NCBI GenBank assembly: GCA_964394925.1
Contig: CAYMZG010000005.1
Span: forward strand, 26,873-90,872
Reading direction: 5' to 3'
DNA: 64,000 bases
From: an uncultured Candidatus Saccharibacteria bacterium
GTDB lineage: Bacteria; Patescibacteriota; Saccharimonadia; Saccharimonadales; CAYLGV01
Below are positions 668-43,387 of this stretch, piece after piece (within the stretch, counting starts at the first letter, position 1; every line of letters starts with the position of its first letter). The notes under the pieces are model-generated. The model did no database searches. It had not been told where the DNA came from and saw nothing but the letters and a program-made list of their open reading frames with translations. The position numbers and the translations under genes are program-made.

Positions 668-1927
668 ATGCGCCCGCGTTCAACGGCCCGCCGACAAGCA
701 GTCTACACCGATCAAACCGGGCAGCGACGCCATCGTCCGGACTATGTCTTAGTAATTCTATCGGCAGTTCTGCTGGTGATAGGCTTGATTGTCGTGTATG
801 CAATAAGCCCCGGGCTGGCCGCCCAGAAGCATGTTTCCGACGGCTATTTTGTAACCAAGCAGATAATAACTATAGTGCTTGGTGCGCTTAGTTTTGGGAT
901 CGTATCACAAGTTCCACTGTCGGTTTGGCGGCGCATGAGGATACCGCTGATCGTAATTGCGGTGATAGCAACCATGATTGCATTGGCTCTACCAGTGAGC
1001 CCGGAGTATCCGGCACACCGTTGGATTCGCTTGGGAGGACAATCATTGCAGTCGGTGGAGCTCATTAAATTTGCACTCGTTATTTGCTTATCATCTTTCC
1101 TGGCTGATCGCATAAAAGAGGGAACCATTCGCGATAGCAAAAAAACACTTCAGCCACTCATGATAGTTTTGGGTGTGATCGGCGTGATTGTGGCTGGCGC
1201 GCAGCGTGACCTTGGTTCAACCGGCGTACTTGTTGCCATGATGGCAGCCATGGCTTATGTGGCTGGGCTGCCCTTAAAGCGCGTGCTTATGATTGGTGGC
1301 ATTATTGCCATTGGTACCGTTCTGGCGGTCGCTTCTACAGGGTATCGACGTGATCGTGTTTTAACTTTTTTACATCCCGAACAGGATTGTCAGAATGCAG
1401 GCTACCAAGCTTGCCAAGCGCTTATTGCCGTTGGCTCGGGCGGTGTGATTGGCAAGGGTCTCAGCCATGGCGCGCAGGCGTACGGTTATCTGCCTGAGGC
1501 TTCGAACGACTCGATTTTTGCAATTATGGCCGAGAAGTTCGGCTTTGTGGGCGTGACGGTTCTGATTGCCTTGTTTATGGCCTTATTTACACGAATCAAA
1601 AACATCATGGAACGGGCGCCCGACGACTTTTCGCGTTTAATGGTAGCCGCTGTCTTGGCTTGGTTGAGCACGCAGACTGTTATTAATATTGGCGCCATGA
1701 TCGGGTTGCTGCCACTAAAAGGTATTACATTACCGTTTATCAGTGCAGGTGGTACAAGCGTAATATTCGTGACGGCTGCTCTTGGTTTGGTGTTCCAGGT
1801 ATCACGCTACACAACCTATGGTGTAGCCGAAGAATTGCAGACGCCCGATACTCAGCCAACGGCCCGTAAAACAACACAGCCCAATGAACGAAGGACTTAT
1901 GAGTACAACAGACCACGCAGCTCATAA
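668..1927 (+). CDS. ftsW: SEDS-family peptidoglycan glycosyltransferase / cell division protein FtsW
   Basis: Multi-TM protein with GQSLQSVELIKF, PEASNDSIFA and LPLKGITLPFISAGGTS. It lies between mraY and murG. Confidence 0.85.
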   Translation: MRPRSTARRQAVYTDQTGQRRHRPDYVLVILSAVLLVIGLIVVYAISPGLAAQKHVSDGYFVTKQIITIVLGALSFGIVSQVPLSVWRRMRIPLIVIAVIATMIALALPVSPEYPAHRWIRLGGQSLQSVELIKFALVICLSSFLADRIKEGTIRDSKKTLQPLMIVLGVIGVIVAGAQRDLGSTGVLVAMMAAMAYVAGLPLKRVLMIGGIIAIGTVLAVASTGYRRDRVLTFLHPEQDCQNAGYQACQALIAVGSGGVIGKGLSHGAQAYGYLPEASNDSIFAIMAEKFGFVGVTVLIALFMALFTRIKNIMERAPDDFSRLMVAAVLAWLSTQTVINIGAMIGLLPLKGITLPFISAGGTSVIFVTAALGLVFQVSRYTTYGVAEELQTPDTQPTARKTTQPNERRTYEYNRPRSS

Positions 1928-20412: not shown

Positions 20413-20489
20413 GGCCCCGTCGTCTAGCGGTTTAGGATATCTGGTTCTCATCCAGAAGATCGCGGGTTCGAATCCCGCCGGGGTCACCA
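20413..20489 (+). tRNA. tRNA-Glu (anticodon CUC), CCA encoded
   Basis: Hand-folded cloverleaf: acceptor GGCCCCG/CGGGGTC, anticodon arm TCTGG-TTCTCAT-CCAGA, T arm GCGGG-TTCGAAT-CCCGC. Confidence 0.9.
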
Positions 20490-20528
20490 AAGTAAAAGGC
20501 TCATCGAAAGATGGGCCTTTTACTTTGG
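20487..20528 (+). terminator. 19-bp hairpin (GAAA loop) that begins inside the tRNA CCA
   Basis: CCAAAGTAAAAGGCTCATC-GAAA-GATGGGCCTTTTACTTTGG. Confidence 0.5.
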
Positions 20529-20636
20529 TTAGGTCTCGCCAGAGACTCCGAAGCCGCAGCGTTCGATCTTCAGGCCCGCTCGCAAGTGCTTGCACTGAGA
20601 ACGGGCGCGGAAGTAAACATCCCGCCGGGGTAACGA
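20529..20636 (+). repeat. tRNA-linked GC-rich structured module, member A, ending in a copy of the tRNA-Glu 3' end
   Basis: Core GCAAGTGCTTGCACTGAG at 20582-20599. ATCCCGCCGGGGT at 20619-20631 matches tRNA positions 20472-20484. Confidence 0.6.
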
Positions 20637-20648
20637 GATGCTTGTACT

Positions 20649-20676
20649 AAAAGACTTTCTCTTGAAGGTCTTTTTT
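20649..20676 (+). terminator. intrinsic terminator
   Basis: AAAAGACTTTC-TCTT-GAAGGTCTTTT stem, with the T run extending to 6 nt. Confidence 0.7.
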
Positions 20677-35979: not shown

Positions 35980-36064
35980 GGGCGAGTGGCGGAACTGGTA
36001 TACGCGCACGACTCAAAATCGTGTTCCTAACGGAGTGAGGGTTCGATTCCCTCCTCGCCCACCA
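35980..36064 (+). tRNA. tRNA-Leu (anticodon CAA), long variable arm, CCA encoded
   Basis: Acceptor GGGCGAG/CTCGCCC, anticodon arm CACGA-CTCAAAA-TCGTG, T arm GAGGG-TTCGATT-CCCTC. Confidence 0.9.
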
Positions 36065-36100
36065 AACAAACAGTCCAGCAACGCTGGGCTTTTTGTTTGG
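36062..36100 (+). terminator. long hairpin beginning inside the tRNA CCA
   Basis: CCAAACAAACAGTCCAGC-AAC-GCTGGGCTTTTTGTTTGG, with two small bulges. Confidence 0.5.
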
Positions 36101-36218
36101 TTGATGTGATGAGAACCCGATCGGCGAAGCCGGGGTTCGTTCATGACGAACACGCGCAGGTGCTCGCACCGAGCATGTGAGGAAATGCGAGCGAAGCGAG
36201 TTCCCTCCTCGCCATGCC
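36101..36218 (+). repeat. tRNA-linked GC-rich structured module, member B, ending in a copy of the tRNA-Leu 3' end
   Basis: Core GCAGGTGCTCGCACCGAG at 36156-36173. TTCCCTCCTCGCC at 36201-36213 matches 36047-36059. Confidence 0.6.
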
Positions 36219-41541: not shown

Positions 41542-42126
41542 ATGATCAGGACAGTTGTATTAACGGGCGGGCCATCGGGGGGTAAGTCAACGCTGCATAA
41601 TCAAATCGGCGAACAGCTGACAGGGGTTTACCTAGTGCCCGAAACGGCTACGATGCTGCTGAGCGGTGGATTTCCTGCCCCTTCGGAGCGGCATCCTTGG
41701 GATGAGACATGGCAGGCCGATTTCCAGGTAGCTATTGCCGCCGGTCAGCTCGCGGTAGAGAACATATCGAAACGGCGTGCTGAGCGAGAAGGAAAATCAC
41801 TCATCGTGTTAGATAGAGGGCGACCCGACGGCGCAGCCTACCTGCCAGGTGGTATGCGGGAGTTCGAAGCGATTACTGGCCAGGATGAGCGCACGATGCT
41901 GCATTCGTACGACATGGTGCTGCACATGCCCACCGCGGCAGCGCACCAGGCATACGATCAGAGTAGCAATCCCCATCGCTTCGAAGAAGCGGCGGCAGCG
42001 CTCGAGCTTGATGAAAGAATAATGAAAGTCTGGGAAAATCATCCGAACCGTATTGTGCTCGATGAGATAGATGAAACAGAGCGCATGGCGCATGGGCTGC
42101 GAATCGTGAAGGGCTTGCTCGACTAG
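41542..42126 (+). CDS. AAA_28-type P-loop NTPase
   Basis: Walker A LTGGPSGGKST, then VPETATMLL. Confidence 0.6.
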   Translation: MIRTVVLTGGPSGGKSTLHNQIGEQLTGVYLVPETATMLLSGGFPAPSERHPWDETWQADFQVAIAAGQLAVENISKRRAEREGKSLIVLDRGRPDGAAYLPGGMREFEAITGQDERTMLHSYDMVLHMPTAAAHQAYDQSSNPHRFEEAAAALELDERIMKVWENHPNRIVLDEIDETERMAHGLRIVKGLLD

Positions 42127-42132
42127 GCTGCA

Positions 42133-42267
42133 AATTGTGGCGGAGGGAGAGGGATAGCGGCCTTCGGCCTTCTCCGCTGCGGCGTACTCGGTGCAAGCAC
42201 CTGCGTGCGTCCTCGCTACGCCGAACCCTGCCACTTCGTGCCATGGGTTCTTCACCCCCCCATACAG
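42133..42267 (-). repeat. tRNA-linked GC-rich structured module, member C, ending in a copy of the tRNA-Ser 3' end
   Basis: The core at 42187-42204, read on the minus strand, is GCAGGTGCTTGCACCGAG. The 18 nt at 42138-42155 are identical to 42307-42324. Confidence 0.6.
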
Positions 42268-42308
42268 CAATGTTTATATCCCAGCCTTCGGCTGAGCTAC
42301 AAACATTG
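42268..42308 (-). terminator. hairpin beginning inside the tRNA CCA
   Basis: Minus strand: CAATGTTT...CAGCC-GAA-GGCTG...AAACATTG. Confidence 0.45.
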
Positions 42309-42396
42309 GCGGAGGGAGAGGGATTCGAACCCTCGATACCCTTTCGAGTAAACCCGCGTTCCAGGCGAGCGCCATAAACCACTAGGCGACCCCTCC
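42307..42396 (-). tRNA. tRNA-Ser (anticodon GGA), long variable arm, CCA encoded
   Basis: Acceptor GGAGGGG/TCCCTCC, anticodon arm CTCGC-CTGGAAC-GCGGG, T arm GAGGG-TTCGAAT-CCCTC. Confidence 0.9.
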
Positions 42397-42493
42397 GTAG
42401 TACGTAAAAAACTGGAACGAGAGTAGTATAGCGAAAAAAATCTAAATTTACACCTTGATTACAGATACCGTTAAGAGGTAGACTATATCAAAC

Positions 42494-43387
42494 ATGCCAG
42501 TGATTGAGTTAAAAGACGTCAGTAAACTGTACGGCTTCGGCGATGCTACTACCATAGCGCTCGACGAAGTTAACTTAGTCATTGAGCCGGGCGAGTTTGT
42601 GGCTATCATGGGCCCCAGTGGTTCTGGTAAGTCAACACTGCTTAATATGATGGGCCTCCTCGACCGCCCTACGCACGGTGAATATAAGCTTGGTGAGCGC
42701 TACGTTTCGCGACTGAGGCAAAATCAGCGTGCTAAAGCTCGCCGCGACACCATTGGTTTTGTTTTTCAGTTCTTCAATCTGATCCCTAACCTTACAGTCT
42801 TAGAGAATGTGGCTTTGCCTCTTGCTTATAAGGGCACAACACGAACGCGACGCCTGAAGCAGGCGGGCTATGTATTAGAGCGTGTTGGTTTGGCAGAAAG
42901 GGAGTATTTTTATCCGTGGCAACTGAGTGGCGGTCAGGCCCAGCGCGTGGCTATCGCTCGTGCACTGGTAAACAACCCGAGCATTATTATCGCTGATGAG
43001 CCTACTGGCAACCTCGATAGTGCCTCATCTCGCCTTGTTATGGAGCTACTGAGCGAAATTCACCAGTCTGGTAGCACGATCTTGATGGTCACACATAACC
43101 CTGAGCTAACGCGCTATGCGAGCCGAGTGGTGTTTATGCGAGATGGCTCAATTGTGAATGATGAGCAGTCCGAGGTTGGTCAGCTACCTGACACCATTCG
43201 TCGAAGGGCCTACTTTGTGCCAAAAAAGACAGTTGAAGATGATTTGGCTGGCGTGTCGGCTCTGATGGAGTCCGCACCCGATAAAGCTCTCAAGAGCGGC
43301 CAAAAAACGACGTTAGCGAAGAAGGTGAAGAAGCACCCGCGCTCAAAGTCATATAGCACCAAAGCCAACACAAGGAAGAAAAGATAA
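42494..43387 (+). CDS. ABC transporter ATP-binding protein (MacB/LolD-type) with basic C-terminal tail
   Basis: Walker A GPSGSGKST, signature LSGGQAQR, Walker B IIIADEPT. Confidence 0.9.
   Translation: MPVIELKDVSKLYGFGDATTIALDEVNLVIEPGEFVAIMGPSGSGKSTLLNMMGLLDRPTHGEYKLGERYVSRLRQNQRAKARRDTIGFVFQFFNLIPNLTVLENVALPLAYKGTTRTRRLKQAGYVLERVGLAEREYFYPWQLSGGQAQRVAIARALVNNPSIIIADEPTGNLDSASSRLVMELLSEIHQSGSTILMVTHNPELTRYASRVVFMRDGSIVNDEQSEVGQLPDTIRRRAYFVPKKTVEDDLAGVSALMESAPDKALKSGQKTTLAKKVKKHPRSKSYSTKANTRKKR

Follow-up and report, generated by a model that had tools for sequence, protein, structure and literature searches.

Genomic islands lodged in tRNA genes are defined by a regenerated target gene and a displaced fragment of it (PMC4383910), and attachment sites (attB) lying in the T-loop are known, for example that of mycobacteriophage Ms6 (PMC1762012). 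Elements of the IS91 family insert beside GTTC or CTTG, carry subterminal imperfect palindromes and form single-stranded DNA circles (PMC13181058). The tRNA genes of Patescibacteria are also known to harbour group I introns, which sit in the anticodon loop at position 35/36 (PMC13011429). Here we describe a short module found directly behind tRNA genes in a 64,000-nt stretch of contig CAYMZG010000005.1 from an uncultured Candidatus Saccharibacteria bacterium (hereafter the window; coordinates count from its first letter) and in related genomes. We read these modules, with moderate confidence, as miniature gene-less insertion elements that target the 3' part of tRNA genes in Saccharibacteria. 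Saccharibacteria and other bacteria of the candidate phyla radiation (CPR) have very small genomes, and roughly a fifth or more of the sampled tRNA genes carry such a module, including all three in the window.

The three tRNA genes of the window, for Glu-CTC, Leu-CAA and Ser-GGA (loci A, B and C), were placed by ARAGORN and Rfam where a preliminary description, made from the letters alone, had put them, and a module lies behind each. The conserved 18-mer of that description, GCARGTGCTYGCACYGAG, occurs exactly three times in the window, always on the tRNA strand and about 90-100 nt behind the tRNA, a count that none of 100 shuffled sequences reached. The direct copies of the tRNA 3' ends reported there are exact at all three loci (Table 1), and the 19-bp hairpin with a GAAA loop behind tRNA-Glu is present as described, its stem including one G.T pair. 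A covariance model of the conserved core (R1) gave only three matches in the window (75.3, 63.8 and 55.4 bits), the next best scoring 9.9 bits. The core regions have a G+C content of 59-69%, compared with 45-54% for the window. The folding energy of the window modules was no better than that of shuffled sequence (z between -0.9 and -1.4) and is not significant alone; the case for structure therefore rests on comparison between copies. Two further details of the preliminary description fared less well. Two C-GAA-G loops had been attributed to each copy, and locus A holds one exact loop only; a terminator had been placed at the end of locus A, where an 8-bp stem and a T6 run can be seen by eye and a simple terminator scan made no call.

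The full anatomy of the module is seen in well-preserved copies from other genomes, namely L105 (complete genome CP025011), L060, L024, L090 and L020, where L numbers designate the loci of our comparative set. In its first half, the intact tRNA (positions 1-76) is followed by a hairpin (Term1), by an inverse copy of tRNA positions 76 to ~44 and by a variable hairpin, of which a few sequence classes recur. The second half consists of a direct copy of positions ~44-56 ending in GTTC, the core, positions 57/59-76 and, in many loci, a second terminator (Term2). The 3' third of the tRNA is present in triplicate, in direct, inverted and again direct orientation, the third copy being split by the core at the T-loop. 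The four-part architecture first proposed had missed the inverse copy of the tRNA 3' third (which in L105 matches at 29 of 34 nt), the direct copy of the T-stem 5' strand with its GTTC, and the second terminator. Its first part, the hairpin that starts in the CCA, is indeed there: Term1 has A-tract and T-tract arms and a stem reaching into the CCA. Since a CCA-starting hairpin is also found at a tRNA without a 3' module (L043), Term1 may be a terminator trait of the lineage and not a part of the module.

The insert measures ~110-170 nt, with ~130-170 nt in the window, and contains no open reading frame (ORF). On its left side, a G follows GTTC even where the T-loop of the tRNA reads GTTCA (7 of 7 loci), so that this G belongs to the insert; no conserved tetranucleotide was found at the right end of the core. 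The length of the duplicated target varies between 13 and 86 nt, with the terminator included in a subset of loci (~55-86 nt). The inverse copy folds better with cognate than with non-cognate distal copies (-12.6 vs -10.0 kcal/mol, p = 2.5e-4), and L105 is predicted to fold into a four-way junction closed by a tRNA-like helix, with a rod shape appearing in the model. The inverse copy has decayed in the window: a GAACCC-type remnant is left in loci B and C, and in locus A a local hairpin occupies the spot of the inverse copy of the better-preserved modules. The Term2 of locus A, which has counterparts at many other loci, is by its sequence a candidate for the original terminator of tRNA-Glu.

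The core consists of a helix P2 of 6-7 bp, containing a C.A "mismatch" with an invariant A, a closing C-G pair, an internal loop GCA/GA and the hairpin P3 (GGUG-CUUG-CACC). Over 104 distinct cores, 83.2% of cells are paired, compared with 68.3% in shuffles, and the covariation score is 0.353, compared with 0.094 in shuffles; none of 500 shuffles scored as high and slid controls gave at most 0.079. The inner hairpin and enclosing helix of the preliminary description are thereby confirmed. Compensatory change is clear in one P2 pair (GC 47, AU 32, UA 17, CG 3) and in double changes of P3, where UA is replaced by AU in 8 copies and L104 has GGAGC/GCUCC. The tail hairpin NNNN-GAA-NNNN covaries as well, being found as GGAC/GUCC, GGCC/GGCC, GGGC/GCCC and GUGC/GCAC. 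By reading of the aligned cores, those of type I are more than 90% identical over ~55 nt across species and tRNAs, while the other parts of the module are unalignable. The distal copy of the tRNA end is often perfect though the inverse copy has decayed, and the decay of the two is uncorrelated.

Evidence on the relevant strand was sought in wobble pairs. On the sense strand, P2 has 143 A.C/C.A cells and only 17 G.U cells, an A.C pair corresponding to a G.U wobble on the opposite strand, and the P2-P3 unit folds 2.5 kcal/mol better as antisense. The main P2 "mismatch" is an invariant A (A46) that stands opposite C, G or A, with A.A in copies from Spirochaetes, which makes a conserved unpaired A more likely. 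Elsewhere in the module (Term1, variable region and tail) the signal points to the sense strand; G.U pairs number 57 in sense vs 5 in antisense in Term1 (across loci) and 40 vs 21 in the variable region. We therefore favour the sense strand as the relevant one, either as RNA or as single-stranded DNA.

Two readings of short elements in the module were rejected. A K-turn or loop-E reading of the GCA/GA loop does not hold, because pair 30:41 covaries as Watson-Crick, and the hammerhead-like strings resembling CUGAUGAG are, by inspection, mutated inverse T-loops in which the GAAA element is missing. In four loci, L017 (Ser-GCT), L030 (Gly-GCC), L045 (Leu-CAG) and L103 (Asp-GTC), unrelated cores that lack the conserved 19-mer of the main family are accompanied by Term1, an inverse T-arm and a distal copy of 13-21 nt, which indicates at least two or three further core families. 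The alternative cores of L030 and L045 have in common an AGTGCC-NGT-GGCACT hairpin.

To assess their distribution, CGCARGTGCTYGCACYGAG was searched in the GTDB representatives, with one genome per species. At least 118 loci were found, mostly in metagenome-assembled genomes (MAGs) of Candidatus Saccharibacteria/Saccharimonadales, and most of the comparative loci are MAG fragments of 8 kb or less. Matches listed outside Saccharibacteria comprise ~35 with the 19-mer only, mostly inside GC-rich genomes and at chance level, and seven copies in Spirochaetaceae MAGs. Among the matches listed, 65 of 128 exact hits lie 52-191 nt behind a tRNA on the same strand, representing at least 18 isotypes. A copy of the tRNA tail follows the motif in ~58 of these 65 tRNA-linked hits, with an exact stretch of 13-20 nt. 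In nearly all of the ~58 loci this copy starts 18 nt from the tRNA 3' end (-18), or at -17, -19 or -20, corresponding to T-loop positions 57-60, and in ~35 loci it extends through the CCA.

Related genomes hold further copies: covariance model R1 identified 109 cores in 83 loci, nearly all of them in Candidatus Saccharibacteria MAGs. Recurrence at many tRNAs is evident from these loci, in which a core lies within 260 nt downstream of 75 of the 121 tRNAs, at a distance of 60-130 nt and covering at least 20 isoacceptors; among tRNAs that had not themselves drawn a locus into the sample, about one in five carries a core. The orientation of the core relative to the tRNA strand is fixed, and where tRNAs are clustered the module sits behind the last one. 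The occurrence of the modules is real, statistically solid and widespread in Saccharibacteria.

No described family accounts for them. In Rfam 15, only the tRNA model matched the window, locus A or L001 (at gathering thresholds and at E up to 10), in line with the earlier statement that no known RNA family was recognised, and a distant BLAST search against annotated phages and plasmids returned nothing relevant. Six motif matches were obtained among 2.9 million viral contigs: one with the motif alone in GC-rich surroundings (L006), four attributable to chance and one on a plasmid-like contig. Two viral-contig matches are related to the modules, and an integrase lies beside neither. No account of the module was found in the papers that could be searched. 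The modules look like an undescribed family of tiny tRNA-targeting insertion elements.

Several copies carry labels from outside the phylum. Complete tRNA-linked modules occur in L016 (Limnocylindrales MAG), L090 (Bacillota MAG), L113 (Pristimantibacillus MAG) and L098 (rumen "proteobacterium" MAG); these labels reflect either mis-binning or horizontal spread beyond the phylum, and the MAGs may be mis-binned. In the Spirochaetaceae/Spirochaetia MAGs L025, L047, L048, L071, L076, L093 and L119, the 19-mer is found as a bare P2-P3 hairpin of ~41 nt (e.g., L076:5141-5202), whose P2 helix reads GAGTCGTAC...GAACGATCTC with A.A replacing C.A. This hairpin sits between tandem units GCCTGGTCG...CTGCTCGGC that resemble repetitive extragenic palindromic (REP) sequences, with no tRNA nearby. 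In the IMG/VR contig 3300024581_002713 (L001), a GC-rich structured stretch at 320-570 of this AT-rich contig includes a P2-P3 hairpin with the C.A mismatch and a GGAC-GAA-GTCC hairpin. It lies directly downstream of an IncFII RepA-like replication gene (856-1782, minus strand), which is why the contig is regarded as plasmid-like. The stretch may serve as an origin or in priming, or it may be one more insertion.

Orthologous or equivalent tRNAs differ in whether they carry the module (gain/loss polymorphism). Empty sites, which the preliminary description had proposed to look for, were found for two of the window tRNAs: in L128 the tRNA-Ser(GGA) next to the same ABC transporter gene has no module, nor does the tRNA-Glu(CTC) of L068. 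The flanks in L128 are rearranged, so that the exact insertion boundaries are unreadable there, and the nearest homologues of a flanking gene are only ~70% identical. Conversely, modules have accumulated at other tRNAs. Tandem arrays of two units (L118) and three units (L030) are present, and recent duplications are visible in L098, where a perfect 86-nt repeat surrounds a 78-nt insert, and in L104:2166-3830, where two 100% identical units of ~190 nt flank a 1.2-kb cassette with a major facilitator superfamily (MFS) transporter gene. In L104 the older displaced fragment has 4 substitutions and the newer one 1. Among 42 tRNAs lacking a module, no case of tail duplication without an insert was seen.

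A mirror-image case was found at the 5' end of tRNA-Ser(GGA) in L043:4031-4300 (minus strand), where the first 24 nt of the tRNA are duplicated upstream. The order there is the original promoter, tRNA-Ser positions 1-24, the P2-P3 hairpin, a new TATACT -10 box and the intact tRNA. Serial displaced fragments at one tRNA are present in L103, L104 and L058. Furthermore, orphan cores lie 0.8-5 kb behind the matching tRNA, with a decayed tRNA tail and Term1 upstream, a layout expected from later insertions at the same regenerated tRNA. The genes between tRNA and orphan cores encode an MFS transporter, a GDSL lipase, a beta-eliminating lyase, an S51 peptidase, an APH, a radical-SAM enzyme and an inositol monophosphatase; no recombinase was found among them. 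The identity of the distal copy correlates with the similarity of Term1 and Term2 (rho 0.43, p = 0.002), a joint decay that is expected if one duplicated segment ages, and Term1 and Term2 are clearly homologous in L070, L032, L090, L122 and L113.

Empty sites, arrays, recent duplicates, varied cores, the mirror case and serial fragments all point to insertion. One of the two hypotheses in the preliminary description was a miniature integrative element that targets and duplicates the T-arm/acceptor end of tRNA genes. Its outline is supported by the T-loop start in ~58 loci, the empty sites, the arrays, the recent duplicates, the other cores and the serial fragments. The picture was incomplete, as it lacked the terminator within the repeat (in a subset), the inverse copy and the position of the core inside a split second T-arm, 3' of GTTC. 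That the modules are not decayed tandem tRNA copies, as already argued there, is upheld.

Table 1. Features of the three tRNA-linked modules in the window.
Feature	Position	Strand	Basis and details
Locus A: tRNA-Glu(CTC), intact, encoded CCA	20413..20489	+	ARAGORN; Rfam tRNA 62.6 bits
Locus A: Term1, 19-bp hairpin with GAAA loop, begins in CCA, A-tract/T-tract arms	20487..20528	+	sequence
Locus A: local hairpin GGTCTC-GCCA-GAGACT	20532..20547	+	fold; comparison with L105, L090 and L020
Locus A: conserved core	20556..20619	+	covariance model R1, 55.4 bits, E 1.7e-14; covariation. GTTC 20561-20564; first G of insert 20565; P2 20574-20581 / 20599-20606 with C.A mismatch 20579/20601; P3 AGTG-CTTG-CACT 20585-20596
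Locus A: displaced copy of tRNA positions 59-76	20619..20637	+	13 nt exact (20472-20484 = 20619-20631); 17/19 overall; CCA decayed to CGA
Locus A: Term2, 8-bp stem and T6 run	20649..20676	+	by eye; no call in simple terminator scan
Locus B: tRNA-Leu(CAA)	35980..36064	+	ARAGORN; Rfam
Locus B: Term1 hairpin, begins in CCA	36062..36100	+	sequence; terminator scan: stem 36072-36090 and TTTTTGTTT
Locus B: GAACCC/GGGGTTC helix around hairpin CGGC-GAA-GCCG	36113..36139	+	sequence and fold. Inverse T-arm remnant paired with copy of T-stem 5' strand; GTTC 36135-36138
Locus B: conserved core	36130..36193	+	R1, 63.8 bits. 19-mer 36155-36173; P2 36150-36155 / 36173-36178
Locus B: displaced copy of tRNA-Leu positions 60-72	36201..36213	+	13 nt exact (36047-36059 = 36201-36213); CCA region decayed
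Locus C: tRNA-Ser(GGA)	42307..42396	-	ARAGORN; Rfam
Locus C: Term1-type long hairpin, begins in CCA, poor T-tract	42268..42308	-	sequence
Locus C: conserved core, type I	42167..42230	-	R1, 75.3 bits, E 1.6e-20. GTTC 42226-42223; 19-mer 42205-42187; P2 42211-42205 / 42187-42181; tail hairpin GGCC-GAA-GGCC 42169-42159, reaching slightly past the R1 match
Locus C: displaced copy of tRNA-Ser positions 59-76 including CCA	42138..42155	-	sequence, 18/18 (42307-42324 = 42138-42155)

The genes near the window modules encode a histidine kinase, a sortase, an ABC transporter, type IV pilins and an AAA_28 protein, and those downstream of loci B and C are convergent. With its type IV pilins and sortase, and with homologues of a window protein bearing the name Candidatus Saccharibacteria, the window very probably comes from a Saccharibacterium. 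The distal copy of locus C begins 11 nt past the stop codon of the convergent AAA_28 gene, and the core of this locus is identical in two Logan contigs of the same strain. Window positions 41542-42494 were compared with L128:3001-6283 and with L127, L129 and L131, all of which have the gene order Exo_endo_phos, AA_kinase, pilin, AAA_28. L128 has three additional genes (258 aa, GT2 and APH) that separate AAA_28 from tRNA-Ser; this trio also stands behind AAA_28 in L127, L129 and L131, in which tRNA-Ser was not detected. The window is without these genes and has module C at that spot. An inversion between modules B and C found no support as the cause of the synteny differences, the 264-aa proteins being unrelated.

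Other loci showed unusual gene arrangements. In L104 the cassette ends in the apparent 3' end of a different tRNA (…CCCCGTCCACCA), which suggests cassette traffic between tRNA loci. In L035:4900-5250, a decayed tRNA-Arg-like pseudogene carries an orphan module and is found 4.5 kb past the intact tRNA-Arg(GCG), with APH, radical-SAM and inositol monophosphatase genes in between; it looks like a later island displaced the old 3' part of the tRNA along with its module. In L103:2300-5200 (minus strand) and L089:2200-2450, modules separate three small genes (166, 281 and 150 aa), each of which lies behind a tRNA-Asp tail fragment and a promoter-like TTGAC(A/T)-N17-TATGAT; in these two species, ACAAAATAGTTCCATACCTG recurs upstream of orphan modules.

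How might such an insertion proceed? We infer the nature of the intermediate, of the enzyme and of the relevant strand, DNA or RNA, as follows. The insert would land in the T-loop, 3' of GTTC, and the tRNA would stay intact because the segment from the T-loop to the gene end is present twice: the proximal copy would complete the working tRNA, and the distal copy would be the displaced fragment, subject to slow decay. The resulting S-I-S layout is what would arise if the tRNA gene and a small intermediate carrying I and S underwent a single crossover, where S stands for positions 59-76 with or without the terminator, and I for the inverse copy, the variable hairpin, positions 44-56 and the core. 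This intermediate might be a circle or a single strand folded back on itself. In single-stranded form, pairing between the inverse copy and the split direct copy may give a rod that imitates the double-stranded target, with the core protruding at the T-loop, and the unit could then recombine with the tRNA gene through the common 59-76 segment. The agent may be a recombinase acting in trans or an HUH-type nuclease recognising the P2-P3 core hairpin; homologous recombination after natural transformation would be an alternative route.

Several points weigh against reading the modules as insertion elements. No recombinase, transposase or reverse transcriptase was found in or beside the window modules or in the larger inserts examined (L100, L035, L103 and L104). 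A single family occupies at least 20 different tRNAs with each copy matching its own tRNA, unlike classical attP/attB recombination; the inverse copy and the split T-arm fit no standard mechanism, and the proposed mechanism offers no explanation for the move between tRNAs or for how the tRNA-derived parts come to match a new target. The core is far better kept than its flanks, even where the inverse copy has decayed, which suggests selection in place, for a host or RNA function; core conservation would reflect either such selection or active copies that renew the core again and again. Cores of one genome are not grouped together by similarity (p = 0.44) and those at one tRNA only weakly (p = 0.03), so that recent within-genome bursts are not indicated. 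In the whole set, Term1 is not significantly closer to its own Term2 than to that of other loci, while a subset is clearly homologous. Finally, the comparative set was seeded by the conserved 19-mer and is a biased sample.

A more specific version of the insertion model can be offered only tentatively. A gene-less fold-back strand or small circle of ~150 nt, displaying an acceptor/T-arm mimic, would copy itself into the T-loop of the matching tRNA and regenerate the gene. The core may have been co-opted as a tRNA-linked RNA (a top-half decoy or spare 3' half), and the modules might serve as landing pads for the exchange of small gene cassettes among Saccharibacteria. In this version the modules would be a kind of mobile element not recognised before.

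The main rival, which was the second hypothesis of the preliminary description and to which we give a somewhat unlikely rating, holds that the module is a structured RNA used by the host, read from the sense strand and transcribed with the tRNA or just after it; the split T-arm would hold the core, and an insertion origin would be secondary. The two readings are not mutually exclusive, a host RNA being compatible with an origin by insertion. In well-preserved copies, the tail (acceptor 3' strand and NCCA), which matches the cognate tRNA, paired with the inverse copy would make a minihelix of 12-18 bp that mimics the acceptor/T-stem, and the RNA could act as a decoy, as a spare 3' half or as a substrate for enzymes of the tRNA top half. 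The strong covariation of P2 and P3 speaks for such an RNA, as do the sense-biased G.U pairs of Term1 and the variable region and the P3 loop, G(CUUG)C being a stable tetraloop well known from RNA. Conservation of the core is high even between modules with unalignable flanks, the distal copy is often perfect irrespective of the state of the inverse copy, a terminator-like hairpin stands behind the distal copy in many loci, and a tRNA-like helix would close the four-way junction modelled for L105. Against it, the module is missing from many tRNAs and from orthologous tRNAs of relatives, and unrelated cores occupy an identical architecture. Decay has reached both the CCA and the inverse copy of modules A and B in the window, and tandem arrays and orphan copies exist. 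Term1 stands between tRNA and module, and no promoter emerged from simple scans, which gave no usable signal. The folding energy, no better than that of shuffled sequence, and the lack of an Rfam match also count against a host RNA.

An improbable alternative, in our estimate, is that the core alone is the mobile unit, a single-stranded DNA hairpin element of the REP/REPIN type (REPINs being REP doublets), of the IS200/IS605 palindrome-associated transposable element (PATE) type or of the IS91 type, served by an HUH nuclease and inserting 3' of a tetranucleotide in hairpin loops such as the T-arm. The tRNA-derived repeats would then be rescue duplications, only those insertions surviving that leave an intact tRNA. 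C-GNA-G triloops are a very stable type of DNA mini-hairpin, and many of the module loops, indeed most, are of this kind. The core is conserved and its flanks are not, its orientation to the tRNA strand is fixed, and the bare ~41-nt hairpin is found between REP-like units in Spirochaetaceae MAGs and beside a RepA-like gene on a plasmid-like contig. The GTTC-G junction and the CTTG loop of P3 further recall the target rule and the subterminal palindromes of the IS91 family (PMC13181058). However, IS91 and IS200/IS605 elements move without target duplication, and the duplication here amounts to 18-86 nt. A conserved tetranucleotide is missing at the right end of the core, the Spirochaete copies are not flanked by GTTC, and the inverse copy is left unexplained. 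No HUH gene was found in the regions examined.

It is very doubtful that the modules are scars of integrase-bearing phages or islands at tRNA genes, from which all genes have been lost and only the two att-proximal ends are left. A regenerated tRNA with a displaced fragment and a T-loop boundary are what such islands leave behind (PMC4383910, PMC1762012), and larger gene-carrying inserts do occur at the same tRNAs. Nevertheless, the core is nearly absent from the 2.9 million viral contigs and absent from annotated phages and plasmids, and it is unlikely that independent events at 20 or more tRNAs would each have decayed to the same ~110-170-nt unit. Moreover, the T-arm copy expected to serve as the attR core site is split by the core and not flanked by it.

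Least probable of all is an antisense RNA product carrying an 18-nt complement of the tRNA 3' end like a retroviral primer-binding site, with Term1 as a bidirectional terminator: the excess of A.C/C.A over G.U cells in P2, the better antisense fold of P2-P3 and the match of 18 nt to the length of tRNA positions 59-76 fit it, but A46 is more probably a conserved base without a partner, the bias of Term1, variable region and tail is towards sense, the loop would be CAAG instead of CUUG, simple scans (with no usable signal) gave no antisense promoter, and no reverse transcriptase lies nearby.

If the modules are mobile, as we favour, they would form a new and extremely small class of tRNA-gene-targeting elements and possible hotspots for the entry of accessory genes. 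Their recognition logic would be unusual, many tRNAs being hit while each copy, the inverse copy included, matches its own target. If they are RNAs, they would be a new class of tRNA-linked structured RNA in a lineage with few known non-coding RNAs. In either case, the tRNA pseudo-fragments can confuse island finding and tRNA annotation, for which covariance model R1 provides a marker.

Some known systems were compared with the modules and set aside. A T-box riboswitch was rejected, as Rfam gave no T-box match and the genes downstream of loci B and C are convergent. The string GATATAGTCGG resembles the S element of group I introns, but the core has only ~75 nt, the tRNAs are uninterrupted and there is no match to RF00028. 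Fragments of group IIC introns, which sit behind terminators, are ruled out by size and by the tRNA-derived ends. Casposon- or CRISPR-like staggered integration is disfavoured, with neither terminal inverted repeats nor Cas1 present.

The RNAs that come closest are tmRNA (transfer-messenger RNA), the bacterial Y-RNA-like YrlA, viral tRNA-like 3' ends and the CCA-ended transcript of the Mauriceville retroplasmid, in which, as in L105, L090 and L020, an NCCA-ended helix resembling the acceptor/T-stem closes a foreign domain. Unlike these tRNA-like RNAs, the module has no Rfam match, its tRNA-like part copies the neighbouring tRNA, and this part has decayed in many copies, including A and B of the window. 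Elements served by HUH nucleases (IS91, the PATE of IS200/IS605, and REP/REPIN with their RAYT transposases) have in common with the module imperfect hairpins, conserved mismatches and a strand-specific orientation. The likeness to IS91 extends to the GTTC-G junction of most copies and the CTTG in the loop; unlike IS91 and IS200/IS605, the modules duplicate their target and no HUH gene lies in the regions examined. REP elements are likewise imperfect palindromes, and the bare hairpin occurs among REP-like repeats in another phylum, whereas the module has no GTAG signature and a low copy number, its three copies in 64 kb being all tRNA-linked, unlike REP/REPIN. By analogy with integron attC and the attP of CTX phage, a single strand of the unit enclosed by the repeats could adopt the shape of a target-mimicking rod with protruding features. 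This likeness to attC is purely structural, and the GTTCGRY of the module does not fit the R-box consensus GTTRRRY.

Cis-mobilizable elements (CIMEs) and elements like miniature inverted-repeat transposable elements (MITEs) are, as the modules are, small and gene-less, with att-like repeats at their ends, and presumably moved in trans. For the modules, however, no autonomous partner was identified and the repeats derive from the target instead of being element-specific. In contrast to MITEs, the inverted segments are copies of the local tRNA that differ by locus, and the duplication is 13-86 nt long and not of a fixed short length. The modules also resemble islands at tRNA genes (tDNA islands, tyrosine integrase, Islander-type), which likewise combine a 3' split and regenerated gene, a displaced direct repeat, a T-loop boundary and serial fragments. 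The modules differ from these islands in their size of 110-170 nt, the absence of genes and integrase, the presence of a related core at 20 or more tRNAs, the inverse copy and the core inside a split T-arm. Moreover, tDNA islands have one lineage per tRNA through attP, whereas core types span isoacceptors, type II for example being found at Thr, Glu, His, Met and Ala. The modules are best filed among insertion elements that target tRNA genes, as a miniature variant whose structured core is conserved, distinct from the tRNA introns of Patescibacteria (PMC13011429).

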